NCBI GenBank assembly: GCA_038150265.1
Contig: JAYOTF010000014.1
Location: 11,186-75,185, forward strand
Length of the DNA stretch: 64,000 bases
From: Deltaproteobacteria bacterium
GTDB lineage: Bacteria > SAR324 > NAC60-12
Direction of reading: 5' to 3'
The first letter of the stretch is position 1. Every line of letters begins with the position of its first letter. The notes under the pieces are model-generated. The model was not told where the DNA came from. It saw nothing but the letters and a program-made list of their open reading frames with translations, and ran no database searches. Both the position numbers and the translations under genes were made by a program. Below are positions 3,981 to 29,469 of the stretch, piece by piece.

Positions 3981-4025
3981 GAATCCTCAATGACGCTAAA
4001 GTTGGCAGCGCTGGGCGCTACGGAA

Positions 4026-4874
4026 TCACAGTTTCAGGGTTCCCAGGGTGATCAGGGGCAAGCCACTTCGGCCCATGCCCCGTTTCTTGTTCTCGTGCCG
4101 ACGGGCGCCCTGGATCAGGGCCTGCAGTTCCGACATTTCATAGGGCGGGCTTTCAATGACAATCTGCCCATTTTCCACAAAGGCTTTTTCTGGCCCCAGG
4201 AGGTAGGGAGAGGCTTCTTCGGCGGGGGGACGGGCGTACAGGCCTCCGATGCGCAGCTGCGTGGGAGCGAGGCGCAGCGCCACGACCACGGCGCTCAGGT
4301 CTCCTGAAGCACCGGCATGCACCACCCCCCGGACGGCTCCCAGGACCATGACGTTGCCTTCCGAGACAATCTCCGCCCCAGCGTTCAGGTCTCCAAACAG
4401 CACCACCGACTCAGAGGCATGAACCTTCTGTCCAGAGCGCAGGGTCTGGGCGACAATCAATCCGGGATCGGTTCGCAGGCCTGCCAGGGGATCGGTCGCT
4501 TCGAGGGGGGGCACCTCGACTTCCACAACGTCTGTTGGCGCCTCCAGGGTTGGAAGCGAAAGCTGGGTCTGCGCCGGCACGGGGGAAGGGGCGTCTTCCG
4601 GAGGCGGAGCGGGAGGAAGCTCAGGAGGAAGGAGTTGCAGATCCCCTTCTTTCAGAATCGACCGAAGGCTGTCAAACTCTTCAGAGGTGACGGTGCGTCC
4701 GGGACGCAAGCGAATGGGCGAGCCCTTGAAGAACCGGTGGGTGGCATGCTCATGCACCATGCGGCGCAGATCCTGCTGAACCCGGGCGAAGGGGGCCGAG
4801 TCATCCAGCACCAGGCCCAGGGAGCCGCCGTATCCCTTTATTTCCACCGAGCGTTCGGCCTCAGCCCAACTCAT
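4026..4874 (-). CDS. minC: Septum site-determining protein MinC
   Basis: TLRSGQKV, GDLNAGAEIVSEGNVMVLGAVRGVVHAG, LAPTQLRIG; Pro-rich linker; start uncertain (4874 or 4913). Confidence 0.92.
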   Translation of the reverse strand: MSWAEAERSVEIKGYGGSLGLVLDDSAPFARVQQDLRRMVHEHATHRFFKGSPIRLRPGRTVTSEEFDSLRSILKEGDLQLLPPELPPAPPPEDAPSPVPAQTQLSLPTLEAPTDVVEVEVPPLEATDPLAGLRTDPGLIVAQTLRSGQKVHASESVVLFGDLNAGAEIVSEGNVMVLGAVRGVVHAGASGDLSAVVVALRLAPTQLRIGGLYARPPAEEASPYLLGPEKAFVENGQIVIESPPYEMSELQALIQGARRHENKKRGMGRSGLPLITLGTLKL

Positions 4875-5003
4875 TTTCCATCCATTGAGTGCAGTGGTCG
4901 TATCCAAGACCACCTATTACTACCACATGCTTGAAAAGACACAACTCCTTCGCCTAGACTTTCTCCGGCAACACCGCCCGTTGCCGCGCGCCAGAGCCGG
5001 CTC

Positions 5004-5441
5004 ATGACCTCGCTCGAGTTGGGAGCCTGGGGCCTGCTGATCCTCTCCGGAGTCGCTGTGCTGGGGCTCTTGGGAGCACTGAGCCTGGCCGTTCGGCACC
5101 GGGCGGTCCGGACCCGGAAGCGGTTCTCCCGCTGCGACCGCGTGGTGCGGGCCCCTCAGGCCGTGCTCTGGGGGCGTCCGGTGGCCGATTGGGCCCTGGC
5201 CTTCTATGCGGGCGTTCTGCTGAGCGCCTTGCTGGGCCTGTACCAGGACGCCCGCTGGCTCTGGATTCTGGACGGGGCGGTTATTGTGGGGGTGGGAGCA
5301 ACATGTTACTATGCGTTCATTCTCTTGTTCCGACTCCGAACGGTGTGCATCGGCTGCTTGAAACTCTACTTTCTCAATCTGGTCATGGCAGCCCTGCTGA
5401 TCGATTATCACTGGAATGTGCTAACGCTTTTCTTCTCCTAG
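5004..5441 (+). CDS. VKOR-family membrane thiol oxidoreductase-like protein
   Basis: Four hydrophobic segments, CDRV...WGRPVA and C-terminal VCIGC (CxxC). Confidence 0.75.
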   Translation: MTSLELGAWGLLILSGVAVLGLLGALSLAVRHRAVRTRKRFSRCDRVVRAPQAVLWGRPVADWALAFYAGVLLSALLGLYQDARWLWILDGAVIVGVGATCYYAFILLFRLRTVCIGCLKLYFLNLVMAALLIDYHWNVLTLFFS

Positions 5442-5461
5442 ATACCCTTCTGAATGAGGCC

Positions 5462-7684
5462 ATGATGGACGCATCCTTAAAGAGCTTGCTGACGCAGTCT
5501 GTCCAGCGGGACGTTTCTGATGAGATCTTTTCCTTCAGCACCTACCTGGAGCTGCTCCACAAGGAGCCCTGGACGGCTCGGAACACCTTCCAGATGCTGC
5601 ATGACATGATCCTGGGCAGTGGTGTGGAGCATGCGATGCACTCGGGAAAACCGATCAAGCATCACTACCGCTTCTTTGAGAACGCCGAGATGATCGGCCC
5701 CTTTGTGGTGTTTGGTCAGCAAAAGGCAAAGGAGAACCTGATTGAAAAGATCAACAACGCCAGCCGGGGGCTGGAAGCCTCGAAACGCCTGTGGGTGCTG
5801 CTGGGACCTCCGGGCGCTGCCAAGTCCCGCTCCATGGATGGACTCAAGAACGCCCTCAAGGAGTACTCCCTGAGCCCGCAGGGCAAGACCTACACCCTGC
5901 TGCTTCCCACTGTCGATGAGCGCCTCAAGGACCGCGCCCTCTTTGAGGAAAACGGCGTCTGGTACCTCCAGTCCCCCATCTTTGAGCGACCGCTGCAGGT
6001 GATTCCGGAGTCGGCACGCAAGGCCTTTGCCGCCCAACTGACGCAGGACCTCGACCGGACCGCCGTAGAGGAGTGGCTCCACCAGCATCCTCATTACGAT
6101 GACGAGTTCGAGGTCCAGATCTCCGGACGCCTCTCGCCGTTCTCCGACTACGTCCTCCAGGACTTCATGCGGGCCAAGCGCATCGGTTTTGTAGAAATGC
6201 TGGAGTACCTGAAGGTCAAGCGCATGGTCTATGATGCCCAGACCAAAACCGGCATTGGCTCCTACACGCCACGCGATGAAAAGAGTCAGGAAGCCGGGTC
6301 GCTGGTGGGCAACATCGACTACAGCCTGCTTCCGCGCTTCGGGTCTGAAAGCCACCCGCTTGTTCACGACTACAAGGGCGAGCTGTGTGCCGGCGCCAAC
6401 GGCTTTGTGGAGATCCACGAGATCCTCAAGCTCTCGGACAAGTTCCTGTACGAGATGCTGTTTGCCACCCAGGACCGCTTCTTCAAGCCGGAGGGCCAAC
6501 CTCCGATTCCCTTCAGTGGCGTCATCATCGGGCACACGAACTTCCACGAGTTCAACATGTTCATGGAGAACTCGTCCTTTGAAGCCCTGCGGTCTCGGAC
6601 GACCTTCATTGAGATGCCCCTCTCCGTGGACTACCGGCAGGAGCAGAAGATCTACGAGTTCACCTACGCGAACGCCAGCCGGAACTGGAACAAGTCCAAG
6701 AAGCACCTGGCTCATACGGCGCCTCACAGCCTCACCCTGCTGAGCCTCGTCTCGGCCATGTCACGGCTGTATGAAAGCAAGCAGAACCCGAACCTGACGC
6801 TGCTCCAGAAGGCCCTCATCTATGCTGGACGCGCCGACAGCGGTGTGGACAACAACCTGGCCAAGATGATCATTGACGAGTTCGAGTTCACCAAACCCTC
6901 CGAAGGCACCTTCGGGCTCGACCCGCGCTTCATCCAGAACGTCTTTGAAAATACCGAACACTTCCAGGTCAACGAGTATGCCGCCAACATCAAGCGGCTT
7001 CAGGAAGAGTCCGGTGACCACGCCATGCTGACGTCCATTGCGCTCGAAAACCCGTGCGTGACGCCGCTCGACCTCTACGTCCGCATGCAGAGCAGCATCA
7101 AGGACAGCTTTGCCTCCCAGAAGACCCGGCTCAACCACTACGTGGAGAAGATCCTTCCACAGGCCAAGAGCTGGATCTTTGGGCAGATCGCCAGTGACGT
7201 CTACAGCGCCATCCTCCGGGACGACTCCGTGATTGAGACCACCTGGAAGAAGTACACCGACCACGTCCGGGCCTTTGTCCTCAATGCCAAGGTCAAGCAT
7301 GAGGTCACCCAGACCGACGTCCAGCCGGACGAAAAGTTCATGCAGTCCATTGAGCAGTACCTGGGGGTTCCGGACAAGGATGTCTTCCGGAAGGAGCTGA
7401 GTGACGCCATTGCCAGCGTCAGCTACAGCGTCATCCTCGCCGATGAGCCGAGCTACCAGAACGCCATCAAGAAGTACGTCTTTGAGAATGAATTCAAGTC
7501 CGGAGAGAACATGAAGCTCCTGGGCTGGATCAAGAGTGGAACCAGCACCGCCGTCGTCAACGACAAGGAGCAGGAGCGCCTCAACGAGACGATCCGCTAT
7601 CTGGTGGAGGTACAGGGGTACTGTGGGAAGTGCGCGTTCCAGGCCCTCACCATCACGGCAAACGCCTCGAGCATCATCCTCTAG
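5462..7684 (+). CDS. prkA: PrkA/YeaG-family AAA+ serine protein kinase
   Basis: LLGPPGAAKS Walker A variant, LVGNIDY, YKGELCAGANGFVEIHEILK, IIGHTN, EALRSR, C-terminal GYCGKCA; start trimmed to ATG 5462. Confidence 0.85.
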   Translation: MMDASLKSLLTQSVQRDVSDEIFSFSTYLELLHKEPWTARNTFQMLHDMILGSGVEHAMHSGKPIKHHYRFFENAEMIGPFVVFGQQKAKENLIEKINNASRGLEASKRLWVLLGPPGAAKSRSMDGLKNALKEYSLSPQGKTYTLLLPTVDERLKDRALFEENGVWYLQSPIFERPLQVIPESARKAFAAQLTQDLDRTAVEEWLHQHPHYDDEFEVQISGRLSPFSDYVLQDFMRAKRIGFVEMLEYLKVKRMVYDAQTKTGIGSYTPRDEKSQEAGSLVGNIDYSLLPRFGSESHPLVHDYKGELCAGANGFVEIHEILKLSDKFLYEMLFATQDRFFKPEGQPPIPFSGVIIGHTNFHEFNMFMENSSFEALRSRTTFIEMPLSVDYRQEQKIYEFTYANASRNWNKSKKHLAHTAPHSLTLLSLVSAMSRLYESKQNPNLTLLQKALIYAGRADSGVDNNLAKMIIDEFEFTKPSEGTFGLDPRFIQNVFENTEHFQVNEYAANIKRLQEESGDHAMLTSIALENPCVTPLDLYVRMQSSIKDSFASQKTRLNHYVEKILPQAKSWIFGQIASDVYSAILRDDSVIETTWKKYTDHVRAFVLNAKVKHEVTQTDVQPDEKFMQSIEQYLGVPDKDVFRKELSDAIASVSYSVILADEPSYQNAIKKYVFENEFKSGENMKLLGWIKSGTSTAVVNDKEQERLNETIRYLVEVQGYCGKCAFQALTITANASSIIL

Positions 7685-13769: not shown

Positions 13770-13932
13770 GATTGCGGACTGTACGGTAGCGGATCATTTT
13801 GATTAACTGTTGAGGTTTGGCGCAGCGAAAGGCTCACCAGGCGGATTTCTTCCCATGGGTCCTCAAGCAGTCCTCCACCTTTCTCGGCAAGACGTTTTTC
13901 TGAAAAATAAAATCCGCTCCCGATCAACCTCT

Positions 13933-16581
13933 GTGTCTCGTTTTTTGGTGCCGTTCCGTCTCTCCATTCAACAGCAACTCTTCCTCCTGGTCGTTGTCGT
14001 CAGTGGCGTGTTGTGCCTGGCCATTGGTGGGTTGGTGCACCTGCGAACGGTCCAGTACCTGGAAGCCGCTCAGCTGGAAGACATGGTTCGGCTCCGGGCA
14101 CTGGTCGCCCAGGACATCAACCGCTTCTTTGAGCAGCATCACCACCCCAACTACCAGGTGAGGCTCCCGGAAGCCCTGGGAGCCCCCGCCCAGCGCTCCT
14201 CTTCGGCCAACCGGCTCCTGCTTCCAGAACAAGGCTCGTTTGATTCCCCCTTGAAGCGCTGGGAAGCCTTCAACGAGTTGGAGACCACCTGGCTCCTCAG
14301 TCAGCCCGAAGTCAACCACGCCCTGCAGCTCGCCCGTCAAGGGGAAAGCCTGCTCATCCAGACCCGAGTTCCCTCGCACCCCATCAGCTTCTACCTGCAT
14401 GTGTTCCGAGACGTCGGACGCCAGGATAACCAACTGGGGCTGTACGCGTTCTACCCCTCCGACCTCACCCGGCTTCTGCAGGAGCACCTCAACTTTGAGC
14501 GGCACGACAGCGGGTTGGTCTTCTGGCTCCGAGATGCCGCCGGGGTCCCGCTCGCCTATGCCGCAGACCCCGGCGAGTTTGATGAGTCCCCTCCGACTCC
14601 CCGGACCCTGCGCTCGTCCAACCAGTTGATGGGAGAAACCTCGATTCCGGTGCCCGGAGGCACCTGGACGCTGACCACCATCCGGGGGCGCTCCGAAATT
14701 CAGGAGCAGGCGTGGGAAATGGTGACGCCCCTCTGGGGACTGCTGGCGTTTGTCTTCGTGATCTTTGCCTCCGGAGGCTTTCTGGTCTCCCGGAAGATCG
14801 GGGTCAGCGTCAAGCAGGTGGTGGAGCAGGCAGAGCGCCTGTCTGCCGGCCGCTACCTCACTCCGGAAGAGACCCCGCTGACCCGCCAAAACGAGCTGGA
14901 CGCCATCTGCCAGGCCCTGCTGCAGATCTCTGATGGCTTGCGCGGCATGGAGCAGGAAGCCACCCGGTTCATTGAAGGAGAGGCCACCCGGATTGTGCAG
15001 CCGCGCTCCAACGAAGACAGCATGGCCTCCACCTTCAACCGCATGATTGAAGCGGTGCACCAGCGGGAAGGACGCCTCAAGGAACAAGGTGAGCTGAATG
15101 AGACCATCCTCAACTCCCTCACCGAGGCGATCTTCATTGTCCAGCCAGACGGACAGATCATCCGGACCAATCCCGTTGCCGCTTCCTGGCTAGAGGGAAA
15201 CCCGGCGGAGACGGCCAACCTGATGCACCTCTTTGCCGATGAGCAGCAGCTGCATGAGCAGGTTCTCAAGCAACTGCAGCATCATCTGGAGCTGCAACAG
15301 GAGACTCCGGACTTGTTGCAGCAGACGCTTGAGGCCATCCCGCTCCCGGTCATTGGCATCCGCCCAGACAGCTCGATTGCCCTGGTCAACGATCGGTTTC
15401 TTGCAGCAACCGGTTACGAGACCTCCCTGCTCAACCAAGCCTTCGGCACCCTCCTGCCTTCCGAGTTTCAGGACAAGCATGAGGAGTACGTCGATCACTT
15501 CTTTGACGCCTCCTCCCTTCGGTCGATGGGGCAGGGCGTCCGTTTCCCGCTGATGACGGCAAAGGGGGGCAAGCGCTACTTTGAGGTGGCTTTGATTCCA
15601 CTCCATGGAGAAAATCCGCTGGCGCTGGCGTTCCTGGCCGACCCGGCGACTCAGGAGCGTTGGGAGATCTTCCGACTCGTGTACTTCTCCAGCCTCTTTG
15701 ACAGCACCGAAAACCAACGCGTCCAGCAGCTCAAGAAGATGAGTGGCGAGGAGATTCCGGTGCTCGTCTCCACTGCGGTGCTCCACGACCGTGCCGGCAT
15801 GCTCAACGGCGCCGTTGTTGCCATGCGTGACCTCACCAGCTTCCAGCGTGTGCAGCGTCAGCTGCAGCAGTCTGCCAAGCTCGCCTCGCTTGGAGAGATG
15901 GCCACCGGGGTGGCACACGAGATCAACCAGCCCCTGACCTTCATCAACGGGGTGCTCTTTGACCTCGTTGAGGACCTGAACGACGGAGTGCCCCTTGAGC
16001 CCCAACAGACCCTGCAGGACCTCAAGGAGAGCCAGCGTCAGGTCCAGCGCATCACCAAGATCATCCAGCACATGCGCCTGTTCGGACGCCAGCACTCGGA
16101 TGCTCGTCAGCCGGTGAGGCTTCGAGAAATCATCAATAACGTCATGCTGTTGCTCGGCAAGAGCCTGCGAAATGCCAACCTTGAAGTGGACCTGACCTAT
16201 CCGGAGGATGAGGAGCTGCTGTTCCAGGCCAACCCCATCCAGCTCGAACAGGTCTTCATCAACCTGCTCCAGAACATCATTGATGCCATGGAAGAGCTGG
16301 TCCTCCCCCGGGAGCGACGGTGGGTCCACATCCAGCTCAAGCGCCAACGGGGCAACGGCCTCGTGCTGCTTGAAGACAACGGCCCCGGCATTCCAGAGGA
16401 AGTCGTGGAACGCATCTTCGACCCCTTCTTCACCACCAAAGGTCCCAACAAGGGCACCGGCCTGGGCCTGTCCATCTCCCTCGGCATCATTGAAGCACAC
16501 GGAGGACGCCTCCAGTGCCGGACTCAGGTTGGCAAGGGAACCACGTTTGAGATCACCCTGCCGCTCTCCCAGGAAGCATGA
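13933..16581 (+). CDS. Membrane sensor histidine kinase (periplasmic domain, HAMP-like, PAS, HisKA, HATPase)
   Basis: Two TM segments, [45 protein letters not shown]; start uncertain. Confidence 0.92.
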
Positions 16582-18299
16582 GCCCACTCCGAAAAATCCT
16601 GGTTGTGGATGATGAACCCCTGGTCCGCCGGACCATTGAGCGGTCGCTCCGGACCCTGGAGGTGGACCTGCACACGGCCGAAAATGGCGCAGAGGGGCTG
16701 CAGCAGATTGAGGCCCTGCACCCCGACGTGGTGGTGCTGGACCTGCGCATGCCGGTTCTGGATGGCCTGGGGGTGCTGCAGCAGCTGGACCTGCGTCCCG
16801 ATGCCCCTCCAGACGTCATTGTCCTCACCGGGCATGGAGACGACGACGAGCTACGCGCCTGTTACGCTCAAGGCGCCCGAGCGTTTCTGAAGAAGCCCTT
16901 CAATCCCATTGAAATGCGAGCCCTGGTGCAGCAAAGCCTCACCATCCGAGAAGCCCAGCAGGCCCTTCAGGAAGTCAACCAGCAACTGGAGCAGCGCGTC
17001 CGGGAACGCACCCAGGACCTGAATCAGCTCAATGAAGCCTTCCGGCGCTTTGTTCCCCGGCAGTACCTCGAGCGGGCGGAGTCGGCGCAGATGGAGGCCT
17101 TCCGTCCGGGGCACTTTCATGTGGAACCGATGACGGTGCTGTTTCTGGACCTCCGGGACTTCACCAACCTCACAGAGCCCCTGACGCCTCTGGAGACCCT
17201 GGAATTCCTCAACCGCTTCTTTGGCCTGATTGTTCCTGTCATTGAAGCGCACGATGGCTTTGTTGACAAATTCATGGGCGATGGCCTGATGGCCCTCTTC
17301 GACCGCAGTGAAGGCGCCCGGCACGCCGTACAGGCGGCGCTGGAGATGCAGGAGGTCCTTCAGGTCCACAATGCCGAACGCGAGCGGCTGCAGCAGCGCC
17401 CGTTGCGCTTTGGGGTCGGCATCCACACTGGCCTGGTCGTGGTGGGGACCATCGGCTCCGACTCCCGCCTCGATTCCACGGCCATTGGCGACACCATCAA
17501 CTCCGCCTCCCGTCTGGAGCAACTGACCAAGCAGTACGGCAGCTGGTTGCTGATCACGGAGACCACGCTCAAGGACCTGGCCACCAGCGAGTTTCAGACC
17601 CGGATGATCGACCGCATCCGCTTTCGGGGCAAGCGCAACCCGCTGCGCATCTATGAGGTCTTTGACCACCTGCCCCTCTCGGCCCAGACCCTCCGGCAGG
17701 AACAGGCGCCCCTGTTTGCCAAGGGGATGGCGCTTTACCAGCAGGGCGCCTTTGAAGAGGCGCTGGACGCCTTTGAGCAGTGCCTCAAGGTGGACCCCGG
17801 AGACAGCATCGTCGTCGAGTACCTCCGGCGCTGCCACACCTTCCTCAAGTACCCCCCCGAGCACTGGGAAGGCATCATGGATGCCAGTGACGAGCTGCTG
17901 CAGCGGGCGCGTCGTCGCACCGCGCCTCGGCTTCCCTTCAGCAGCCCCGCGTGGGTGCAGCGGAATCCGGAACACATCATTCCCGCCCAAACCCTCGACC
18001 TCTCTCGCTACGGATTGCGACTTGCGCTGGAAGAGGCCGCGGGCATTGGAGAAATCCTCATGGTCCGGATCGACCCCCAGCACCTGCAGCTGGAAATCGG
18101 CCTCGACCGTCCCTTTGAAATGCTCTCCCAGGTGGCGTGGAGTCGGGAAGCCCCGCAGGAAGAGCCCCTCCTGCCCTGGCAAGTGGGAGTCGAGTTTGTG
18201 ACCCTGGATCCGGAAGAGGAAATCTGGCTCAACCGCATCCTCATCAACCTGTCGGAACAGGTCCCCAGTTCCTCTCCTCCCGAGGTGTCCCATGCCTAA
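16578..18299 (+). CDS. REC - class III adenylate cyclase - TPR - PilZ protein
   Basis: REC (VVDD, DLRMP, KPF); FLDLRDFT, DKFMGDG, TAIGDTINSASRLE; TPR; RTAPR...DLSRYG. Confidence 0.9.
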   Translation: MSPLRKILVVDDEPLVRRTIERSLRTLEVDLHTAENGAEGLQQIEALHPDVVVLDLRMPVLDGLGVLQQLDLRPDAPPDVIVLTGHGDDDELRACYAQGARAFLKKPFNPIEMRALVQQSLTIREAQQALQEVNQQLEQRVRERTQDLNQLNEAFRRFVPRQYLERAESAQMEAFRPGHFHVEPMTVLFLDLRDFTNLTEPLTPLETLEFLNRFFGLIVPVIEAHDGFVDKFMGDGLMALFDRSEGARHAVQAALEMQEVLQVHNAERERLQQRPLRFGVGIHTGLVVVGTIGSDSRLDSTAIGDTINSASRLEQLTKQYGSWLLITETTLKDLATSEFQTRMIDRIRFRGKRNPLRIYEVFDHLPLSAQTLRQEQAPLFAKGMALYQQGAFEEALDAFEQCLKVDPGDSIVVEYLRRCHTFLKYPPEHWEGIMDASDELLQRARRRTAPRLPFSSPAWVQRNPEHIIPAQTLDLSRYGLRLALEEAAGIGEILMVRIDPQHLQLEIGLDRPFEMLSQVAWSREAPQEEPLLPWQVGVEFVTLDPEEEIWLNRILINLSEQVPSSSPPEVSHA

Positions 18300-19428
18300 G
18301 AACCGCATCCTCCTTGTCGATGATGAAGAAATTGTTCGCAGTACCGTCCGACGCGCCCTCCGTCATGAAGCCGTTGAAATCGCAGAGGCTGAAAATGGAC
18401 AGGTCGCGCTGGAAAGCATCCGGAGCTGGGAGCCCGATGTGGTCTTCCTGGACCTCCGGATGCCGGTGCTGGATGGAATCGGGCTGCTGCAGGAGCTTCA
18501 GCTGACGCCTGAGGTTCCGCTGCAGGTCATCATTCTGACCGGACACGGCGATGATGAGGAGCTGCGGGAGTGCTACCAGCTGGGCGCCCGTGCCTTTTTG
18601 CGCAAGCCCTTCAACCGCATTGAAATCCGGGCCCTGATGCGCCAGAGCCTCGACTTCCTCAAGTCTCAGCGGCAGCTGCGCCTCGCTCTTTCCCTGAGGT
18701 CGGAGCAGCTGGAGCAAACGGAGGCCGAGCTGTTTCAGGCCTCCAAGCTCTCCCTCCTCGGCGAGTTCACTGCCGGCATGGTGGTGGACCTCAGTCAGCC
18801 CATCGGCTTGCTGAGCCTGGCGGTGGAAAGTGGCCGGAAGGCCCTGGAGCAACGGGATTGGGAACGGATGGAGCGCGTTGTCAACCGCCTCGGGCAGGCC
18901 ACTCAGGAGACCATGGACCTCCTGGACCGCATGCGTTCCTTTGGTCAGCAAAACCTGGAGTCGCCCTACCCGCTGCGCCTGAATGAGACCCTGCAGAAGA
19001 CCCTCAGGCTGCTGGAGCAGCCTCTGGAAAACGCCGGCATTTCCGTCAGCCTGGACCTCCAAACGGGGCTCCCGGAGGTCCAGGCCGTCTCCGGACAACT
19101 GGAGCAGGTCTTCACACACCTGATCCTGAACGCCAAGGAGGCGCTGCTGCTCAATCGCGCTGAAGGAGAGCGCACCCTGCACCTGCAGACCCGGAGCACG
19201 CCCACAGCGGTGCAGGCCCTTGTGCGCGACAACGGCGGAGGGGTGCCCGAAGACATGGAGCCGCACCTCTTTGACACCCTTTACACGACCCGGGACGGGA
19301 CGGCCGCTGCAGGGATGGGGCTCTCCATCAGCAAACGCTTGCTCGGACTCTACGAGGCTGATATTCTGTTAAACAATTACCCTCATGAGGGAGCGGAGTT
19401 TGTCATCACGTTCCCCCTGAAAATCTGA
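18292..19428 (+). CDS. REC - HATPase hybrid with degenerate H-box (pseudo-kinase)
   Basis: REC intact; GMVVDLSQP in place of [11 protein letters not shown]1 and G2 boxes present. Confidence 0.85.
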   Translation: MPKNRILLVDDEEIVRSTVRRALRHEAVEIAEAENGQVALESIRSWEPDVVFLDLRMPVLDGIGLLQELQLTPEVPLQVIILTGHGDDEELRECYQLGARAFLRKPFNRIEIRALMRQSLDFLKSQRQLRLALSLRSEQLEQTEAELFQASKLSLLGEFTAGMVVDLSQPIGLLSLAVESGRKALEQRDWERMERVVNRLGQATQETMDLLDRMRSFGQQNLESPYPLRLNETLQKTLRLLEQPLENAGISVSLDLQTGLPEVQAVSGQLEQVFTHLILNAKEALLLNRAEGERTLHLQTRSTPTAVQALVRDNGGGVPEDMEPHLFDTLYTTRDGTAAAGMGLSISKRLLGLYEADILLNNYPHEGAEFVITFPLKI

Positions 19429-19457: not shown

Positions 19458-20228
19458 ATGCCAGATTCTGTCATGAAAAAACCTAATTTATTGTTAGTCG
19501 ATGATGACGCCAGCATGTTGGCCTCGCTGCTGGACTTGCTGGAGGAGGATTACACGGTTTATACCGCAGAAAACGGAGAGCGGGCCCTTGACCTGCTCCG
19601 GACGTCCGGAGTGGACTTCCCGGTGGTGGTCTCTGACCAGAGCATGCCGCGTCTGCCAGGACATGAACTGTTTCGCATCATTCACACGGAATTTCCTGAC
19701 ACGGTGGGGATCCTGTTTACCGGCTTTCCGGAGGTGGAAAGCCTCATTCAGGCGGTCAATGAGGGGCACATCTACGGCTGCCTCCGCAAGGACTTCAAGG
19801 CTCAGGACCTCGTGCAGCTGGTCAACCGGGCCTACTCCTGGCAGGAGAGCCTGCGGAGCCTCAAGGCTCAAGCGGGCGTGGGTGCCACCGAACTGCTGGA
19901 GCAGGAGCTGCAGCGGGCGTGGCGGTATGGGTTGGAGTACGTGGGCGTCCTGATTGACTGGTCGGGGCCGGCCTCCACCGAGCAGCTGAAGCCCAGGCTC
20001 CGCAAGACCGACGTGGTGGGCAACCTGAATGAGTCACGGAGCCTGGTGCTCCTGACGCACACGCCTCTGGAAAAGGCCCGCCCCGCCCTGGAACGCCTCT
20101 TGGCGACCTGCCCGGAATGCCAACTCGGCATCCTGAAGCCCAGCAACGAGCCTCCGAACTCTGCAGAAGCCTACCTGCTCAGCCTCAGTCAGGAAACCTT
20201 CCAGGAAGTCACCCAGCCCCTTCCTTAA
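19458..20228 (+). CDS. Response regulator with degenerate GGDEF-like output
   Basis: LVDDD, SDQSMP; C-terminal ELQRAWRY...IDW...LRKTDVVGNLNESRSLVLLTHT. Confidence 0.8.
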   Translation: MPDSVMKKPNLLLVDDDASMLASLLDLLEEDYTVYTAENGERALDLLRTSGVDFPVVVSDQSMPRLPGHELFRIIHTEFPDTVGILFTGFPEVESLIQAVNEGHIYGCLRKDFKAQDLVQLVNRAYSWQESLRSLKAQAGVGATELLEQELQRAWRYGLEYVGVLIDWSGPASTEQLKPRLRKTDVVGNLNESRSLVLLTHTPLEKARPALERLLATCPECQLGILKPSNEPPNSAEAYLLSLSQETFQEVTQPLP

Positions 20229-20584
20229 AGATCCTCCAGCATGGCCATCAGCTCCGGAACCTTGAACGGCTTGTCCAGGAATTTCCAAACGGCCAGGTCG
20301 TCAAAGAGGTGCTTGAAGCTGACGCCTTTCACATCAGCTCCACCGGACATCACGATCACCCGAAAGTCCCACCCACGTCCTCGAACGGTCCGGAGCAGCT
20401 CTTCCCCGTCCATCTCTGGCATGATGTAGTCCGTGATCATCAGATCCGGATGTGCCTCCTCCAGCACCGTCAGGGCCTCCTTCCCGTTCATGACCCCCTG
20501 AACCTCGTGGTCCAGGGTTTCCAGAATGTCAATGAGGACGTCTCGGAAGACAGCGCTGTCTTCCACCACAAGTATCTTAGCCAT
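20225..20584 (-). CDS. Single-domain response regulator
   Basis: ILVVEDS, ITDYIMP, VMSG, KPF; start trimmed to ATG 20584. Confidence 0.92.
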   Translation of the reverse strand: MAKILVVEDSAVFRDVLIDILETLDHEVQGVMNGKEALTVLEEAHPDLMITDYIMPEMDGEELLRTVRGRGWDFRVIVMSGGADVKGVSFKHLFDDLAVWKFLDKPFKVPELMAMLEDL

Positions 20585-22214
20585 GCCGGGTCTCAGAGTG
20601 GGAATCAACAGAGAATTTCGGGAGTTGGATGTGAAAGCAGGCGCCCGCGTCTTGGTTTTCCACCGTCAACCGGCCTCCCAGATGCTGCTCCACAATCATG
20701 CGGGACATGTGCAGTCCCAGTCCGGTTCCTTGACGGTCCCGCTTTGTACTGAAGTAAGGCTCAAAGATCCGTTCCTTGAGTTCGTTGGGAATGCCACCTC
20801 CGGAGTCTGCCACACTGAGCAGGAGCGAGGTGTCCTGGTTCACCAGCGTAAACGACAGGCGCCGGTTGGCTTCCGGCACACTCTGCAGGGCGTCCACCGC
20901 GTTGCTGATGAGGTTCAGCAGCACCTGCAGCAATTCGTTGGGCAAGGAGTCGATCGGGTCCACCTCTTCAAATGAGAGGGCGACCTGGACCTGAAAGCGC
21001 TCCAGGCGTTGTTCCATGAGGCTCAGGGCCTGCTGGCAGACGGTCTTGACACACGTCGGCTGCTGCTGCTGCTCAGCCTGGAGCATCTTCCGGAAGTCTT
21101 CAATGGTTTGGGAAAGGTACTCCGTCTGTGTCTGAATCTGCGTCAGGCCTTCCCCCAGCGCCTGCTCGCTCAGCTTGTGGAGCTGCCGTTTGAGGATCAT
21201 GCCCTGTGCCAGGGTGCTGATGACCGCAAGCGGTTGGCGCCACTGATGCGCCACCATGCCCAGCACCTCGCCCATGGTCGCCAAGCGCGTTGCCTGCCGG
21301 AGCTGCTTTTGGGACTCCAGCAACGCCTCGTTCGCCTGCGACAGCTCAGCATTGGACCCCTCCAGGTTCTCCTCGGCGAGGGTCCGCTCCTCCATCAGCT
21401 GCACCATGGTCTGCTGATACACCTTCACGGCCTCCATCAGCTGGACCACCTCATAAGTCGTCATCTGTTTCGGATCAAAGCGCATGGGCCGCACCAGGTG
21501 GGTGCGGTCAGCATTTTGCCACCGCAGGCTGTGCTCCGAAATCTTGTCCGCCAGGCCCATGAGGGGCAGGCTGAGGCGCCGGGAGAGGTAGTTGACGAGG
21601 ACCAGGGAGACCGCCAGGCTGATGAGCACCATGACCGTCAGGTTCTGAATCTCCTCACGCAGGAGTCCGGTCTGGAAGTCGTCGTTGAAGAGGACCATCA
21701 GGCGCCCGAGTGGCGCCCCACGGTTGTTGAGCAACACCGAAATCTCCATGAACTGCTCCCCGGGCTCCAGCACCCGGTGGCTCAGTTGCAGGCGCTCAGA
21801 GAGTTCCACTTTCTTGCTGAAGAATCCCTGGGCCTTGTAGCCCTGGAGGGGAACGGTGCCACTGTCGAGCAATCCCACCACCCGGCGCTTGGGGAGCCCA
21901 TTGGCTTGAAAGACAACCTCGTCCGATGCATCCAGCACCACTCCTTCGGGGTCCAGGACGTACACCAACTCCACCTGAGGCAGGGCACTCATTTCCTCTA
22001 GTGTGATATTCAGCAGCGCCCAGTTCCGAGACAGCACCGAATCCGTACAGTCTCGCACAAAGGTCATCACCAGCCACTGGTTGAGCTCCAGCTGCTGTTG
22101 CTGCTGAGACTGGGTGGCATACCAGATCTGGTAGGCAAACATCAGGGATGCCGTCAGGAGGAGCAACCCTCCAAACCAAAGAAACAGCTGAGATTGAATC
22201 CGCAGGCGCTTCAT
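20577..22214 (-). CDS. Membrane sensor histidine kinase
   Basis: Two TM segments, H-box AHQWRQPL, NLISNAVDA, DSGGGI, FEPYFSTK, GTGLGL. Confidence 0.92.
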   Translation of the reverse strand: MKRLRIQSQLFLWFGGLLLLTASLMFAYQIWYATQSQQQQQLELNQWLVMTFVRDCTDSVLSRNWALLNITLEEMSALPQVELVYVLDPEGVVLDASDEVVFQANGLPKRRVVGLLDSGTVPLQGYKAQGFFSKKVELSERLQLSHRVLEPGEQFMEISVLLNNRGAPLGRLMVLFNDDFQTGLLREEIQNLTVMVLISLAVSLVLVNYLSRRLSLPLMGLADKISEHSLRWQNADRTHLVRPMRFDPKQMTTYEVVQLMEAVKVYQQTMVQLMEERTLAEENLEGSNAELSQANEALLESQKQLRQATRLATMGEVLGMVAHQWRQPLAVISTLAQGMILKRQLHKLSEQALGEGLTQIQTQTEYLSQTIEDFRKMLQAEQQQQPTCVKTVCQQALSLMEQRLERFQVQVALSFEEVDPIDSLPNELLQVLLNLISNAVDALQSVPEANRRLSFTLVNQDTSLLLSVADSGGGIPNELKERIFEPYFSTKRDRQGTGLGLHMSRMIVEQHLGGRLTVENQDAGACFHIQLPKFSVDSHSETRHG

Positions 22215-22221
22215 GTTTCCT

Positions 22222-23169
22222 TCACTGCACCTGGATGCTCTCTAGGTGAAAGAAGGCCTCCAGTTTATTGGGAAACAGCAAGGACTCGTTGCTTCCGGTT
22301 TGTGCCGGTAGCACAATGAATCCGCCCCCAAAGGTCTCGGGAATGGAGTTCCCTTCCAGGGAGTAGGCCACCAGCAGCTGGTCCCGGTCGCTTTCCGCAG
22401 GAATGACCATTTCAAGCCCCAGGGAGGAGCGGAGCCTCAGCGGACGCCCCTGTGCGGTCTCGGGCAGCAGCTGACTCAGAGGCACCACGCCAATCTCCGT
22501 GTTCTCATTCGGCACCATCACCCCCTTGCGGACTCCACGCGGAATCGGAAGCACCCGGTTCAGGGTTGACCGAGAGGCCCGGAGCATCTGCTCACGCGAC
22601 CACGCCTGGGTGGCGTCTCCCTGCTGCACCTCCACCGACGACACCAGGTCGATGTGCCCAAAGAGGAGCATCTTGACGTACCAGGTGTAAAGCCCCACGT
22701 CTCGTTCGCTCGTGCTCATGACCTTCACCGGTCCACCGCGACGTGGAGAGATGGGTTCTCCGTTTTGCTCAAAGGCCAGGAGGGCACCCGCCCGGACCAG
22801 GTCGGTAAAGGGTTCATGCGTGCTGTAGCCATCATTGGCCAGCATCGTCAGGTCTCCCTCAAACGGCTGCTCCAGCTGGAGCACCTGGGGCAGGTCCTCA
22901 AACGGCATCCCGCTGAACTGCTGGGGGCCATCCTTGGAAAAGATGGGGTCTGTGACTTCAATGGTCTTGAGGTAGGGGCGCAGGTCTTCTTCGGTGACCA
23001 CCTTCTCACGAATCTGCAAGTTGGCGTCACGGATGAACAGGTGCAGCTCAAAAGGTACGGCCTGGACCGCAGAGCTGGTGATCAGCAGGAGCAGCAGCGC
23101 TCCAGGGAGCCTCTTCAAGGGGATTAGCCACTGCTGAAAAAAATGAGTCATTCTTGGGTTACGTTTCAA
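22222..23169 (-). CDS. Secreted protein with tandem truncated sulfite-oxidase-fold (PruR-like) domains
   Basis: Signal peptide ending AVQA; FSGMPF..ANDGY..LLAFEQNGEPISPRRGGPVKV and a second copy VPLSQLL..LVAYSLEGNSIPETFGGGF; no Cys. Confidence 0.65.
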   Translation of the reverse strand: MKRNPRMTHFFQQWLIPLKRLPGALLLLLITSSAVQAVPFELHLFIRDANLQIREKVVTEEDLRPYLKTIEVTDPIFSKDGPQQFSGMPFEDLPQVLQLEQPFEGDLTMLANDGYSTHEPFTDLVRAGALLAFEQNGEPISPRRGGPVKVMSTSERDVGLYTWYVKMLLFGHIDLVSSVEVQQGDATQAWSREQMLRASRSTLNRVLPIPRGVRKGVMVPNENTEIGVVPLSQLLPETAQGRPLRLRSSLGLEMVIPAESDRDQLLVAYSLEGNSIPETFGGGFIVLPAQTGSNESLLFPNKLEAFFHLESIQVQ

Positions 23170-24662
23170 GGGTTAACGACGGGAAAGGTAATCTGAACCA
23201 GGGCTCCGTGCCCTTCCCGGCTCCGGAGGTGAAAGCGGCCATTCTGGTCCGCAATGATGCTTCGGCAAATCGAAAGCCCCAGGCCGGTCCCCTTGCCGGC
23301 CTCCTTGGTGGTAAAGAAGGGGTCTTCAATCCGCTGAAGGAGCTTTTTCGGAATTCCGGGGCCGGTGTCTTCCACCTCCATGCGGACCTCGTCGTCTTGA
23401 CGAACCACCCGAAGGACCAGTTGCTTGGCGCCACCGAAGTGCTGGAAGGCGTCTCGCGCGTTGCTGACCACCTCCACCAGAACGTGCTGCACCTGTCCGG
23501 GAATGCACCTGATGGAGCAGGGCTCCTCGGTGTACTCCTCCAGCAGCTCAATGCCCCGTCCCACAAACTGCTGCCGGTGCAGATCCGCAGTGGCCCGAAC
23601 CAGGTTCCGGGGGTCTTCTTCCACAAAATCGGTCTGATTCGACACCTGAGCAAAGTGCCGGAGTTGCTGAATGACCACGGCAATCCGGTCCACATGCTCA
23701 TCAATGCGCATCAGGGAGCCCTTGACCTTCTCCGGACGCTTTTCCAGCTGGCTGATGGCGCCACTGACCGAGAGTTTGATGATGCCCAGGGGGTTGTTGA
23801 TCTCATGAGCCAACCCGGTGGCAATGCTTCCCAGAGAAGACAGCTTGGTGTTCTGAACCAGCTGACGCTGCAGGGCCACCGAATCGCGCTGGTGGCGCAC
23901 CAGGCGGGCGTGGTTTTCCAACCGTGCCAGCATCTCCTCCCGTGAGAAGGGCTTGACGAGGTAGTCGTTGGCTCCGGCCTTGAGGGACTCAATGACCACC
24001 GAATACTCGCCAGCCGCCGTGAGGATGATCACCGGCAGCTCCGGACGGTTCAGAGGCCCCCGGATGGTCCGGCACAGCTCAATGCCATCCATTTTCGGCA
24101 TCACAAAGTCCGTCACCACCAGGTCCACGGGGTACTTTTCCAGCAGCTCCACCGCCTCTTCGCCATTGGACGCATCCAGCACATGAGCGCCTCGTTTGCG
24201 GAGGATCCGGGCCAGGATCGTCCGGATGGAGCGGGAGTCGTCGACCACCAGGATGTTGATGTCTTCCAGGGAGTGCTCATCGGCCAGCAGCTCCTCCAGG
24301 TACTCCCGGAGGCTTCCGGGCTCAAAGGGCTTCTTGATGAACTCCACCGCCCCGGCATGAAAGGCTCGGGCATTCAGGTTGGGCTCCTCCTTGCTGGAAA
24401 TCACAATGATCGGAATGTGCGAACACTGCGGGTAGTAGCGGATGCGCTGAATGGTGGTAATGCCATCAATTTCCGGCATTTCCACATCCATCGTGATCGC
24501 GTCCGGCTCCAGCTCAATGGCCATGCTCATGGCCTCTCTGCCACTCTCCGCCTCATAAATCTGAGCGTTGTGCAGGCTGGAGAGTTCCTCCCGGATGAGC
24601 TTTCGGGAGCTGGCGCTGTCATCGACCACCAGGATTTTCAGAGGGACCGGGTTGGTGTTCAT
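23166..24662 (-). CDS. Cytoplasmic REC-REC-histidine kinase
   Basis: Two REC domains (DVEMP, DFVMP), [37 protein letters not shown] before ATG 24662. Confidence 0.93.
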
Positions 24663-24710
24663 TCTCCTCACACAAGAAAAGGCATTACGTCGTCACGCCT
24701 CGCATTCGCT

Positions 24711-25952
24711 TCAATCCCAAAGCGTCTGCTTGGCAAAAAAATCAAGAATCTGGTTGAGCAGCACCTGCTCCTCAGGCGCCACATAAAGGAACTCGATGCC
24801 AAACTCTCCGCGCCCCTCCTGAGACCGGTTCCAGATGGTGGTCCCGGTGACTTCCAGGGGGGCCAGGTTCGGAATCACGGGACGGCCCTGCTCCCAAAAG
24901 ATGGTCATGCGGACCGTCACGCCCACCGGAAGCGCGTGGTCGGACTTGACCCGGGCGCCGGAGCGCGACAGGTCCAGCAGCTGCCCCTCCCAGGCTTCCG
25001 CCTGCTTGAGGGTGCTCCGACGCTCTTCATACTGCACCGGCACCTGCACGTTGTAGCGCTCGGCGCGGCTCGACCGGGCGTTGAAGAAGCGCTCCTCCGC
25101 CTCGCAGAGGACCTCCTCCGAGTGCGCGCCTTCCGGAGGGTGTTCCCGAAAGTAGTTGCACCGCTTGATGTAATTGATGGTGACCGGGTCCTCCGGAAAC
25201 TGCTCCAGGCACTCCCGGAAGGGCAACAGCGCCTCCTCAAAGAGCCAGGCCTTGTACAGGGCCATCCCCTGAAAGAGCAGCATCTGCGTGGACCGCTTCA
25301 CCTCCTGCAAGGCAGGGGAGTCGGTCGCAAACACCTCATACACGTTCACCAGCCGTTGCCGTCCCCGGACCCGGAGGGTGTCCACCTCGCGGACGGCCTT
25401 CAGCTGCGACCGGAGGGCCGCATGCGTGTGGTGCGAAATGAGGATCCGCGAGCCAAACGACTTGGTCAGGGTCTCCAGGCGGGCGGCCAGGTTGACGGCA
25501 TCGCCAACCACGGACAGGTGCTTGCCCCGCAGGCCTCCCACCCAGCGGTGTCCCACAATGACGGGTCCGGTGTTGATGCCAATCCCGGCCCGGAACTGCC
25601 GAGCCCGAGGACGGGCATTGAAGGCGTCAAGCCGCTGCTGCATCGCCACTGCGGCCTCCACGGCCCGGTCAGCACTGGAACGCCCCTCAAAGAGCGCCAT
25701 CAGGGCATCGCCCATGAACTTGTCCACCACGCCCCCATGCTGCTCCACCTCCAGCACCAGCGCATCAAAGATGGCACTGAGCATCCGAAACCCCGTCTTC
25801 GGCGTTGTGGACTCCACATGGGTCGTGTACCCCCGGATGTCCAGAAACAGGATGGAGAGGGTCATTTCCCTCAGAGGAGAGACCTCGTCACTTAACGCCT
25901 CATGGCTCGCAATCCAATGAAGTCCTCGTTTTCTAGAAGAATTCGACATCAT
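24711..25952 (-). CDS. Class III adenylate cyclase - TPR - PilZ protein (no input domain)
   Basis: FLDIRGYT, DKFMGDA, SVVGDAVNLAARLE; TPR; DLSRSG. Confidence 0.88.
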   Translation of the reverse strand: MMSNSSRKRGLHWIASHEALSDEVSPLREMTLSILFLDIRGYTTHVESTTPKTGFRMLSAIFDALVLEVEQHGGVVDKFMGDALMALFEGRSSADRAVEAAVAMQQRLDAFNARPRARQFRAGIGINTGPVIVGHRWVGGLRGKHLSVVGDAVNLAARLETLTKSFGSRILISHHTHAALRSQLKAVREVDTLRVRGRQRLVNVYEVFATDSPALQEVKRSTQMLLFQGMALYKAWLFEEALLPFRECLEQFPEDPVTINYIKRCNYFREHPPEGAHSEEVLCEAEERFFNARSSRAERYNVQVPVQYEERRSTLKQAEAWEGQLLDLSRSGARVKSDHALPVGVTVRMTIFWEQGRPVIPNLAPLEVTGTTIWNRSQEGRGEFGIEFLYVAPEEQVLLNQILDFFAKQTLWD

Positions 25953-27726
25953 CGAGTAAATCGTCCTCGGTCGCCTCCACCGGCGCGGCGTCTGCTTGCT
26001 TCTCTGCAGGGTCCCACCCCTCGAAGAGGCGGTTCAGGACCTCCCGGAAGGGCTCTTGCAGACAGGAGTGGTGAATCGTCCGCTCCACGTCCCGCGAGTA
26101 GAGGCGTTCCAGTTCAGAAAGGTCGAGGGGCTCGGAAGCCTCGGGCTCGCCCGCAAGCGTCTGGTCCAGTTCGGTGTGGAGAAGTTCAATGAGCTGATAC
26201 GTCAGGCGGACGCGAAGCTCCACCTGCTCCCCAAAAGAAAGATTTTCCAACAAGGTGAGGATTCCACCAGCTAATTTCCATGTTTCCCGCGAAACCGCTC
26301 CGGTCCGGGCCAGCATCGCCACACTGGCTTCCCGGAAGCCCTGCAGGCGTTCATTGAGGGACACGCGGGTCCGGCCCACCGACTCCAGCTGCTGGTCGAG
26401 GGACTGCTGCAGCGCCTCCTGGAACCCCGAGATCAGCTCCAGCCCCTCCTGAAGGGTGGAGACTTCCCGTGAGAGCAGGTCCTGTGCTTCTTCCGAGCGG
26501 TGAATGACTTCGTGGCTGAGCTTCTCCAGACGGGCCGAGTGCTCTCCGGCGTCATTCGGAAGCAGCATCGCGTTCACCGACATGCGGCGCAAATCGTTGC
26601 CAATGTCTTCAATGGATTCCAGGTGCTCTCGGGTCAGCCGCAGCCGGGCATTGACCTCTTCCATGGCACCCAGCACCCGGCGGGTGACGCCCTCGCTGCG
26701 CCGGAGGGTCTGCAGAAGCGCCTGCAGCGCCAGGTCCAGCTGCCGCACTCCCGCACTGAGGGGGCCCTCGAGTCCCAGGATCTCTCCCACGCGGGACACC
26801 TGATTCTGAGCCCGGGCAGAGATGTCCCGGAACCGGGCGTCCACCTGCTGCTCAATTTCATCCGTCTTGTGGAGGACATAGGCCAGCTGCCCGAGCTGGA
26901 TCTCCAGGCACTGCCGGGCCCAGCGTCGGGAGGCCACCGAGCCCTCCTCCAGCCGGGTTCCGGCAAGCACCAGCGCCTCCGAGACGTGCTCCATCTGCTG
27001 CCGGGTGATGTCATGGAACTGCACCGCCATGACGACCTGATTGAGGTACGGGACAATTTCTTCCGAGTCCTTGCGGATCCAGCTGCAGGAGCTGACGACC
27101 TTGCGCATCAGGCCCCGCATCTCCCGGACCCCGTCTTCCACCTGTCGCTGCAGCGCCTCTGCCTCGAGCGGCATCAGCTCGCTCAGGCGGACCTGTCGCA
27201 TGACGGTAAAGAACTCCTCCTGGGCCTGCTCCGCGCTCCAGGTCATGGAAAGCCGGGTGTCGGCCATGTGTCCGGCCAGGGTGGTGATGCCCTCGGAGAG
27301 CTGCACAAACGCCCGGGGGTGCGAGTGCTGCTGCCCCTGAAGGTTCATGAGCACCCCAATGATGCGGACCGCATGGGCCAGGCGCATGAGGAAGCCGCCC
27401 ACCTGCTCCAGGGACTGGGTCCGGCTGGTGAGGTCGTGCAGGCTGGGAAGCGTCCCGGTGAGGAGCGTGGTGCTGTCTCCGACCTCACCGCCTCCCTCCC
27501 GGAAGAGCGTTTCCACGTCGTCCAGCCGCCAGCCTTCGCCCGACTGAATCCGGGCCTCCACCTCACCGACTTCGGCAGAGTTGTTCTTGAACTGCGTGGA
27601 GACGCCATAGATCTGGTCACCGAGCAAGAGGAAGTCCTGCTCGGTTTCGCTGGAGATGCTCATCAGCCCCTCAGCCGCCTGGCGGAGGAGGGCTGTGCCT
27701 GCAGTTAAATCGAAGGAGGCGGTCAT
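25933..27726 (-). CDS. Cytoplasmic MCP-like coiled-coil protein with CheZ-like QFHDITRQ motif
   Basis: No TM; degenerate hairpin-tip motifs (RRMSVNAML); VQFHDITRQQMEHV; acidic tail DDLLDDVEFF. Confidence 0.7.
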   Translation of the reverse strand: MTASFDLTAGTALLRQAAEGLMSISSETEQDFLLLGDQIYGVSTQFKNNSAEVGEVEARIQSGEGWRLDDVETLFREGGGEVGDSTTLLTGTLPSLHDLTSRTQSLEQVGGFLMRLAHAVRIIGVLMNLQGQQHSHPRAFVQLSEGITTLAGHMADTRLSMTWSAEQAQEEFFTVMRQVRLSELMPLEAEALQRQVEDGVREMRGLMRKVVSSCSWIRKDSEEIVPYLNQVVMAVQFHDITRQQMEHVSEALVLAGTRLEEGSVASRRWARQCLEIQLGQLAYVLHKTDEIEQQVDARFRDISARAQNQVSRVGEILGLEGPLSAGVRQLDLALQALLQTLRRSEGVTRRVLGAMEEVNARLRLTREHLESIEDIGNDLRRMSVNAMLLPNDAGEHSARLEKLSHEVIHRSEEAQDLLSREVSTLQEGLELISGFQEALQQSLDQQLESVGRTRVSLNERLQGFREASVAMLARTGAVSRETWKLAGGILTLLENLSFGEQVELRVRLTYQLIELLHTELDQTLAGEPEASEPLDLSELERLYSRDVERTIHHSCLQEPFREVLNRLFEGWDPAEKQADAAPVEATEDDLLDDVEFF

Positions 27727-27733
27727 GGTCGGC

Positions 27734-28354: not shown

Positions 28355-28373
28355 GTAAAAAACCTTTCTGTAT

Positions 28374-29453: not shown

Positions 29454-29469
29454 GATCTTCCTATCCTGC

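Follow-up and report, generated by a model that had tools for sequence, protein, structure and literature searches.

FixL, a heme-PAS kinase, and DosP, in which a heme-PAS domain precedes a second PAS domain, are the textbook cases of this kind of sensor, and in both the PAS domains stand in tandem. In FixL (PDB 1d06, 1dp6, and 8js5) the heme PAS itself adjoins the kinase domain, and in Escherichia coli DosP (EcDOS; PDB 9cdr, 1v9y, and 1s66) the tandem PAS domains lead to a GGDEF-EAL output. FG214 from Fimbriimonas ginsengisoli (PDB 10jx/10jy) belongs to the one-component HTH regulators, and its PAS domain is uninterrupted and not nested in another. In the FG214 preprint, the proximal heme ligand of that protein is His156 and the distal one His175, with Met172 as an alternative distal ligand that is bound in a dithionite-reduced crystal; the preprint describes the FixL heme as five-coordinate, with no Met ligand, and treats the transfer of a signal from a PAS domain to the next domain as still debated, even for FixL (10.64898/2026.03.15.711900). 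Here we analyze a sensor histidine kinase gene in a 64,000-nucleotide stretch of contig JAYOTF010000014.1 (positions 11,186 to 75,185 of the forward strand; hereafter the window, with positions counted from its first nucleotide) of assembly GCA_038150265.1, from a Deltaproteobacteria bacterium that GTDB places in SAR324 (NAC60-12). Like FixL, the encoded protein carries a heme-type PAS domain above a HisKA/HATPase kinase. Unlike FixL and DosP, however, it holds this domain within a second PAS domain, and its output is a histidine kinase in place of the GGDEF-EAL of DosP. As an architecture the module has good support, and heme sensing is predicted for it.

A PAS domain interrupted by a complete PAS domain

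The module was studied as a 261-residue piece (window 15082–15864; protein residue = piece number + 424). A preliminary description, made from the letters of the window, had proposed a PAS domain inserted within another at 15097–15840; this region is in frame with the open reading frame (ORF) 13810–16581 (+), and its translation is identical to the peptides quoted there. Pfam matches divide the piece into three parts. Piece residues 1–75 match the fronts of PAS profiles only (PF00989 3–67 of 113, PAS_9 2–57 of 103, PAS_4 1–37 of 110), residues 76–193 match the whole domain (PF00989 3–99 of 113, PAS_4 1–105 of 110), and residues 194–261 match the backs only (PAS_4 65–109 of 110, PAS_9 67–102 of 103). 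Each part alone matches weakly (E 7e-4 to 4e-2); the 248-residue stretch together reaches E 1e-10. The NCBIfam AtoS profile (NF008468) is split likewise, with protein residues 430–500 aligned to profile 270–342 (E 8.7e-10 for this piece) and residues 633–922 to profile 335–611, leaving 501–632 as an insert; at 233.4 bits the protein does not reach the AtoS equivalog cut-off of 646, and its likeness to AtoS is at the level of the kinase class only. The canonical PAS elements are all present, in order, in the outer domain (Pfam coordinates 3–67 and 65–109, and the AlphaFold2 models described below), which is interrupted by about 137 residues (498–634) between F-alpha and G-beta. Matches to profile hidden Markov models (HMMs) thus split around the insert as the preliminary description had anticipated, with complementary half-profile coordinates flanking a full PAS domain. 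The order of half, whole, and half, read from the Pfam pieces and from two models, corresponds to nesting and not to the tandem order of DosP or FixL, in which the domains follow one another.

Judged by its alignments, this arrangement is far beyond chance, as the piece aligns as one stretch to proteins of unrelated lineages at 23–32% identity. With phmmer, 1.84 billion cluster representatives yielded 1555 proteins at E ≤ 1e-3, 166 at ≤ 1e-10, and three at ≤ 1e-30, of which the best 150 representatives were listed. Among these, P0017 aligns over query residues 6–252 (E 1.9e-21) and P0025, annotated as a “PAS domain S-box protein” in a Fidelibacterota genome, aligns over residues 6–260 in one stretch. 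Without nesting, the region would have to consist of three independent units, a normal PAS domain with the remnant of a decayed one on either side, and the match of each half alone to PAS profiles is indeed weak (E 9e-4 to 4e-2). We regard this explanation as very improbable. The profile coordinates of the two halves complement each other exactly, and the halves are conserved together in 22–24 of the 150 best representatives, with up to 18 matches in one genome; decayed remnants would not remain conserved at 23–30% identity across phyla. Nor do the models show three independent degenerate PAS units, the outcome that the preliminary description had named as contradicting it: the halves are modeled as one fold, with which single PAS or LOV chains align at Z 11.6–12.0.

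The first AlphaFold2 (AF2) model was computed for the window module from an alignment of the query and 21 relatives (A1), which is collinear throughout at 20–30% identity. It has a mean predicted local distance difference test score (pLDDT) of 80.4 and a predicted template modeling score (pTM) of 0.71. In piece numbering its helices (H) and strands (E) run H2–12, E16–20, E25–29, H31–37, H47–50, and H54–71 in the N-half; H76–85, E90–93, E98–102, H104–110, H121–124, H127–143, E155–158, E164–174, and E180–186 in the inner PAS; and, after it, a linker helix H194–205 followed by E213–218, E224–235, E241–250, and H252–260. The return linker is the least confident part (pLDDT 50–56, compared with 67–89 in the second model). 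The second model is of the P0062 module (G088:C6), which shares 30% identity and comes from another lineage and phylum; its alignment (A3) has 28 rows, namely 26 modules of the P0062 lineage taken from DNA, the window module, and a close relative (L011). It reaches pLDDT 88.6 and pTM 0.84, and its elements follow one another as in the first, so that both models read beta-beta-alpha-alpha-alpha, a complete PAS, short helices, and beta-beta-beta-alpha.

Most structural comparisons place solved PAS domains on the inner domain (model residues 74–189), and three span both outer halves. These are 5xge (the PAS of PA0861) on model 1, with 107 residues aligned, root-mean-square deviation (rmsd) 3.3, Z 12.0, and range 1–258; 6ph2 (a Brucella LOV domain) on model 1, with 116 of 125 residues aligned, rmsd 2.6, Z 11.9, and range 1–257; and 5xgb on model 2, with 98 residues aligned at 30% identity, rmsd 2.8, Z 11.6, and range 1–275. 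When 5xgb is aligned to the inner domain instead, its identity is only 13%, and the 30% identity across the outer halves fits its sequence match to the outer N-half, where it is hit by positions 3–62 of the family profile at E 5.8e-10. The PAS of Pseudomonas aeruginosa PA0861/RbdA (5xgb/5xge) and the kinase-proximal PAS of AtoS-type kinases are the nearest relatives of the outer PAS; they are continuous, whereas the outer PAS of the kinase carries an insert. The models, whose use for this purpose had been suggested in the preliminary description, put both halves in one PAS fold, and together with these alignments they provide good evidence for it, short of final proof in that the alignment ranges give only the first and last aligned residue.

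Completion of the outer PAS in trans is a further option, in which the N-half of one chain would pair with the C-half of its dimer partner in a domain swap around the insert. Histidine kinases are dimers, which makes a swap feasible; the long insert and the low-confidence linker of model 1 would permit it, and monomer models cannot separate cis from trans pairing. Both monomer models nevertheless close the fold in cis, with the pTM values given above, and nothing observed requires a swap, which we consider improbable. The outer halves were also co-predicted as separate chains (A1 1–73 and 206–261). Three runs gave an ipSAE (interaction prediction score from aligned errors) of 0.33, while the best of three controls scored 0.00; the partner pLDDT was 61 or more, at least 84% of contacts were shared between runs, and the outcome was graded as weak support. 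In calibration, 116 of 157 solved complexes and two of 215 mismatched pairs attained the ipSAE mark, and scores of at most 0.60 made up 18 of the 157 and both mismatches. For PAS halves such a pass may also mirror likeness to solved PAS structures, and it was not counted as evidence.

The inner domain and the proposed sensor

By sequence, the inner domain belongs to the FixL/DosP/FG214 group of heme-PAS domains. FG214 is the best single-sequence PDB match of the region (10jx, E 0.023), with EcDOS at 0.8 and FixL at 1.7. When the family profile is compared with PDB sequences, the 14 best distinct matches are all heme-PAS domains (4.6e-23 to 3.1e-16), comprising four DosP constructs (4.6e-23 to 2e-22), FG214 (10jx, 6.3e-22), seven FixL sequences (1.8e-18 for RmFixL to 3.1e-16, with BjFixL at 3.9e-18), and two EcDOS heme-domain constructs (about 7–8e-17). 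The match that follows this set is 5xgb, on the outer half, and the next full-length match to the inner region is 3bwl (5.5e-6). In structural comparison (VIA) the closest match is RmFixL (1d06; Z 13.9, rmsd 2.3, 113 residues aligned); FG214 (10jx) gives Z 13.5, rmsd 2.4, and 112 residues aligned, and EcDOS (1vb6) Z 13.4, rmsd 2.0, and 108 residues aligned. The second model repeats this alignment with heme-PAS domains.

The candidate axial ligands align as well, in keeping with the FixL/Dos-like kinship put forward in the preliminary description. The inner PAS aligns with residues 26–133 of DosP PAS-A, and His557 falls on DosP His77 and on FG214 His156 (10jx chain index 87; adding 69 to the chain index reproduces His156, Met172, and His175 of the FG214 paper). 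The L-x-P-x5-H spacing that had been read at this site needs correction to L-x-P-x6-H (Pro550 to His557), which is the spacing from Pro70 to His77 in DosP. Met573 aligns with FG214 Met172 (chain Met103) at the same spacing of 16 residues after the His, and lies two residues ahead of the DosP Met95 column, that is, nearer to the His than the distal Met of DosP. FG214 and the kinase have in common L-[LI]-P at the His557 site, P-x2-R-x-M-G, and the His-Met spacing (the shared pattern of FG214 being L-[LI]-P-x3-R-x2-H), while the main distal ligand of FG214, His175, corresponds to Gly576 in the kinase. In the 22 rows of A1, His557 is kept in 21, Met573 in 19, Arg571 in 18, Gly574 in 19, and Pro550 in 21. 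Among inner-type domains of the stored proteins (at least 40 bits over at least 95 HMM positions, with P0153 omitted as a near-duplicate), the His is present in 25 of 26 nested and 328 of 331 free domains and the Met in 23 of 26 and 301 of 331, respectively. The 261-residue piece contains no Cys and no CXXCH, so any heme would be non-covalent, and a covalently bound c-type heme is ruled out. Most likely, the domain would bind heme b through His557, with Met573 as a displaceable sixth ligand. The preprint describes FG214, whose pocket is the closest relative of this one, as redox-regulated with a ligand switch, which makes O2 sensing only one of several options for the kinase (10.64898/2026.03.15.711900).

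At the end of the outer PAS, every family member inspected has [DN]-[LIVM]-x (mostly D-L or D-I) followed by a helix to the output, which in the family sequences is HisKA, another kinase type, or further PAS/GAF domains; this makes the outer domain the transmitter and the inner domain the input. We therefore favor, as probable though far from certain, a rigid two-domain sensor in which an inner PAS of the FixL/DosP/FG214 lineage, with heme b on His557 and Met573 displaceable, sits in the F-alpha/G-beta loop of an outer transmitter PAS and acts on the kinase. The route that we infer, with its bound heme, its signal, the direction in which it regulates, and its partner in phosphotransfer, would run as follows. 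A change in heme ligation, through binding of O2, NO, or CO or through the redox state of the iron, would shift the FG loop and sheet of the inner domain. Its two closely spaced termini, anchored between the F helix and the G strand of the outer domain, would be displaced. The outer PAS would turn the strain into movement of its C-terminal helix and so set autophosphorylation, and the REC-cyclase-TPR-PilZ protein, which is translationally coupled to the kinase, would receive the phosphate on its REC domain.

Several points weigh against this two-domain heme sensor. The nesting in the models was read from the order of secondary structure and from first and last aligned residues, not from coordinates, and both AF2 alignments come from one family, so the models are not independent of the family's collinearity. 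The outer halves match DosP PAS-B in the right order (profile 12–54 to DosP 151–193 and profile 212–268 to DosP 206–261), but weakly (independent E 0.49 and 14). Structural ranking fails to single out heme-PAS domains, with photoactive yellow protein (PYP) at Z 12.2 and the non-heme 3mfx at Z 13.7 against 13.9 for FixL. Gln554, three residues before the His, replaces an Arg kept in 19 of the 22 A1 rows. Val577 stands in the DosP Arg97 column, where 14 of 22 rows have Arg; Arg578 adjoins it, and the kinase lacks in that column the FG-loop Arg (DosP Arg97, FixL Arg220) that makes contact with the bound ligand or a propionate. Within the nested family a divergent subgroup (P0160 and L049) keeps the scaffold without the His and the Met, which indicates that the scaffold can persist without both. 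Finally, the survey by Xing et al. (2023; PMC10468136) reports that 40% of the FixL/DosP cluster (cluster 3) lacks the His, so that kinship alone is no proof of heme.

The same observations feed an alternative in which the nested fold is real and the inner PAS of this kinase binds no heme, serving instead as a sensor of another small molecule or as a structural or dimerization insert. It would draw on Gln554 and Val577, each in place of an Arg found in most relatives, on the His-less members of the nested family and of the wider cluster, and on the nearly equal scores of the non-heme structures. Set against it, both His557 and Met573 are present at the FG214 spacing, and all 14 of the best PDB sequences are heme-PAS domains. 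We judge it unlikely, although it is the strongest competitor of the heme-based sensor.

Distribution and origin of the nested module

Most of the best 150 representatives match the inner PAS only. The full module (from HMM position 20 or earlier to 250 or later) occurs in 25 of 153 stored proteins, corresponding to 22 of the 150 listed representatives when the kinase itself and two members of clusters are not counted; a looser N-terminal limit admits P0098 and P0148 as well, so that the module of about 270 residues is collinear in 24 of the best 150. A loose form of the return-linker motif was found in 24 of 27 module-bearing stored proteins and in none of the 126 others. In a FastTree phylogeny of 357 inner-type domains, all 26 nested domains fall in one clade of 27 tips (printed support 85, two state changes); the additional tip, P0151 17–133, is a genuine tandem PAS. 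A single clade of nested domains and a common linker motif argue for a single insertion event followed by spread. In P0137, two nested modules lie in direct tandem (residues 472–738 and 739–996), the second far more divergent than the first (104 versus 250 bits).

Close relatives of the kinase are few: the homologue search returned only the kinase itself and P0003, which has 69–70% identity and lies in a genome of the same genus. Judged by its MinD, whose best named matches are a “Deltaproteobacteria” metagenome-assembled genome at 87% and a SAR324 one at 73%, the lineage of the window is probably SAR324. Among 88 genomes of the window's phylum, the full module occurs only in the window genome and that of one congener (profile 2–274, E about 1e-82), and the profile search did not find it in the third genome of the genus, of 96% completeness. 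By contrast, inner-type PAS domains that stand free are frequent in the phylum (42 of 88 genomes at E ≤ 1e-15). At least one more heme-type PAS protein, not nested, is encoded in the window genome itself, as a 489-residue ORF at G000:C12:60850-61308 (-) that matches profile 61–205 at E 2.2e-20.

The P0062 lineage consists of gammaproteobacteria labeled Piscirickettsiaceae. One 2.9-Mb gammaproteobacterial genome (G088) has 19 matches spanning profile positions 2–5 to 272–274, plus one split in two. The module carriers of this genome, a striking expansion of paralogues, are mostly kinases of about 730–1200 residues (e.g. L045-L048, L050, L127-L130, L133, L134, and L141). In the P0062 family, nine of 17 genomes have between one and 18 module matches at E ≤ 1e-35. 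An even sample of the class gave at least two of 300 genomes with a match, both in the P0062 family; eight candidates were scored per genome and one further genome was left unscored, so this count is a floor. A comparison of the A3 profile with longer proteins, in which 8000 candidates were scored and 13 matches listed, is likewise no census. P0160, P0161, P0163, and L049 (G317:C28) combine the nested module, here without the His and the Met, with an N-terminal Tll0287-like domain bearing C-x2-C-H and a C-terminal hemerythrin domain, and P0160 is seen on 44 contigs.

A wider reading of these data would treat the module as a distinct PAS-in-PAS allosteric relay of about 270 residues and single origin, in which a heme-PAS serves as a switchable proteinaceous “ligand” in the FG loop and which has spread between distant lineages; we put forward this possibility as falling somewhat short of an even chance. 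With the same reserve, the insert would then occupy the FG loop of the transmitter, the same loop that moves in FixL-type signaling, and the spread would have taken place among a probable SAR324 relative, Fidelibacterota, and the Piscirickettsiaceae-labeled gammaproteobacterial family. The dozen or more kinases in some genomes would presumably differ in the O2, NO, or redox set-points to which they are tuned. The presence of up to 18 matches in a 2.9-Mb genome suggests that those bacteria use the module as a main means of sensing.

Nested sensors of this two-domain type occur in several lineages of bacteria, and no earlier description of them seems to exist. In a search of about 8.4 million openly available full texts for a PAS domain inserted in a PAS domain, nothing relevant emerged beyond engineering papers and texts that use the letters “PAS” in another sense, and the protein atlas search returned only generic “PAS domain S-box” clusters. 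The words “insert”, “nested”, and “interrupted” do not occur in the main text of the PAS survey by Xing et al. (2023; PMC10468136). Annotation with Pfam hides a nested PAS, as such cases are reported as “PAS, PAS, PAS”; the return-linker motif W-E-x-F…F-G-x-L-F offers a sequence signature for finding them. The closest parallels in construction are engineered LOV2/PAS insertion switches (7tbn, a LOV2-DARPin, and 9hkf, a photoswitchable HaloTag), in which a host domain carries, in one of its loops, a PAS-fold sensor joined to it by both neighboring termini, so that a change in the sensor's conformation is transmitted mechanically. In the module one PAS is likewise wired into another through both termini, but the engineered switches are man-made and their hosts are not PAS domains, whereas the module is natural and conserved. 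It could serve as a compact system for studies of PAS-to-PAS coupling. dCache-like double modules were considered for comparison and set aside, being extracytoplasmic and not known to be nested.

Domain map and neighboring genes

The domain order of the kinase, from Pfam and hydropathy, is transmembrane (TM)-HAMP-PAS-HisKA-HATPase (Table 1). HisKA (33.4 bits, cut-off 26.9) and HATPase_c (89.4 bits, cut-off 26.4) both score above their Pfam cut-offs. The NCBIfam FixL equivalog matches the kinase part only (116 bits, cut-off 850). The database gene call (P0002) starts at the ATG at 13855 and gives 908 residues. A Pfam scan found no family upstream of residue 326, including the approximately 225 residues between the hydrophobic segments. 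The two segments and the Pfam domains indicate a membrane sensor kinase with an unassigned external domain, which has no Pfam match, and a cytoplasmic PAS region. The stretch 14041–14718 (+), about 225 residues and presumably periplasmic, may be a second input domain.

Table 1. Coordinates of the kinase gene, its parts, and the genes downstream, in window positions
Feature	Position	Strand	Basis or remarks
Sensor histidine kinase gene	13810..16581	+	923 residues from first start codon TTG; ORF list and Pfam
Two hydrophobic segments, about residues 55–77 and 304–327	13972..14790	+	Kyte-Doolittle scan, 19-residue window
HAMP, residues 326–378	14785..14943	+	PF00672 E 3.9e-4, 21.1 bits, under the Pfam cut-off of 25
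Outer PAS N-half, residues 425–497	15082..15300	+	N-cap helix, A-beta, B-beta, C/E-alpha, F-alpha
Inner complete heme-type PAS, residues 498–613	15301..15648	+	Lies in the outer F-alpha/G-beta loop
His557 codon, predicted proximal heme ligand	15478..15480	+	F-alpha of the inner PAS
Met573 codon, candidate distal or alternative axial ligand	15526..15528	+	R-S-M-G
Return linker, residues 614–634	15649..15711	+	Motif W-E-x-F-x2-[TSAV]-x-F-[GS]-x-L-F; predicted helix
Outer PAS C-half, residues 635–675	15712..15834	+	G-beta, H-beta, I-beta; terminates in R-D-L-T
Outer PAS exit helix into HisKA	15835..16092	+	AF2 H252–260; PF00512 E 4.7e-8 at residues 694–761
HATPase_c, residues 808–920	16231..16569	+	PF02518 E 2.7e-25
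REC, class III nucleotidyl cyclase, TPR, PilZ gene	16578..18299	+	Pfam
REC and HATPase_c protein	18292..19428	+	Begins within the last bases of the cyclase gene; ORF coordinates and Pfam
Single-REC protein	19458..20228	+	C-terminal part without an assigned domain; Pfam

The TGA of the kinase gene overlaps the ATG of the cyclase gene as a four-base ATGA (16578–16581). This overlap and the REC domain of the next gene product connect the two, and the kinase would control the REC-cyclase-PilZ protein downstream. A second class III cyclase-PilZ fusion, without a REC domain, lies at 24711–25952 (-), giving two such fusions within 10 kb; synthesis of cyclic nucleotides may be gated by cyclic di-GMP (c-di-GMP). 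The second fusion stands in a signaling cluster on the opposite strand (20577–30936 (-)), which also contains a 652-residue ORF (25933–27891 (-)) with no Pfam family at E ≤ 1e-5, a histidine kinase (20577–22214), a molybdopterin-oxidoreductase-like protein (22222–23169), two REC-REC-kinase hybrids (23166–24671 and 29470–30936), and CheB (28374–29711 (-)). Elsewhere in the window, a PrkA-type AAA serine kinase gene occupies 5189–7681 (+), with MinC and MinD upstream at 3201–4913 (-).

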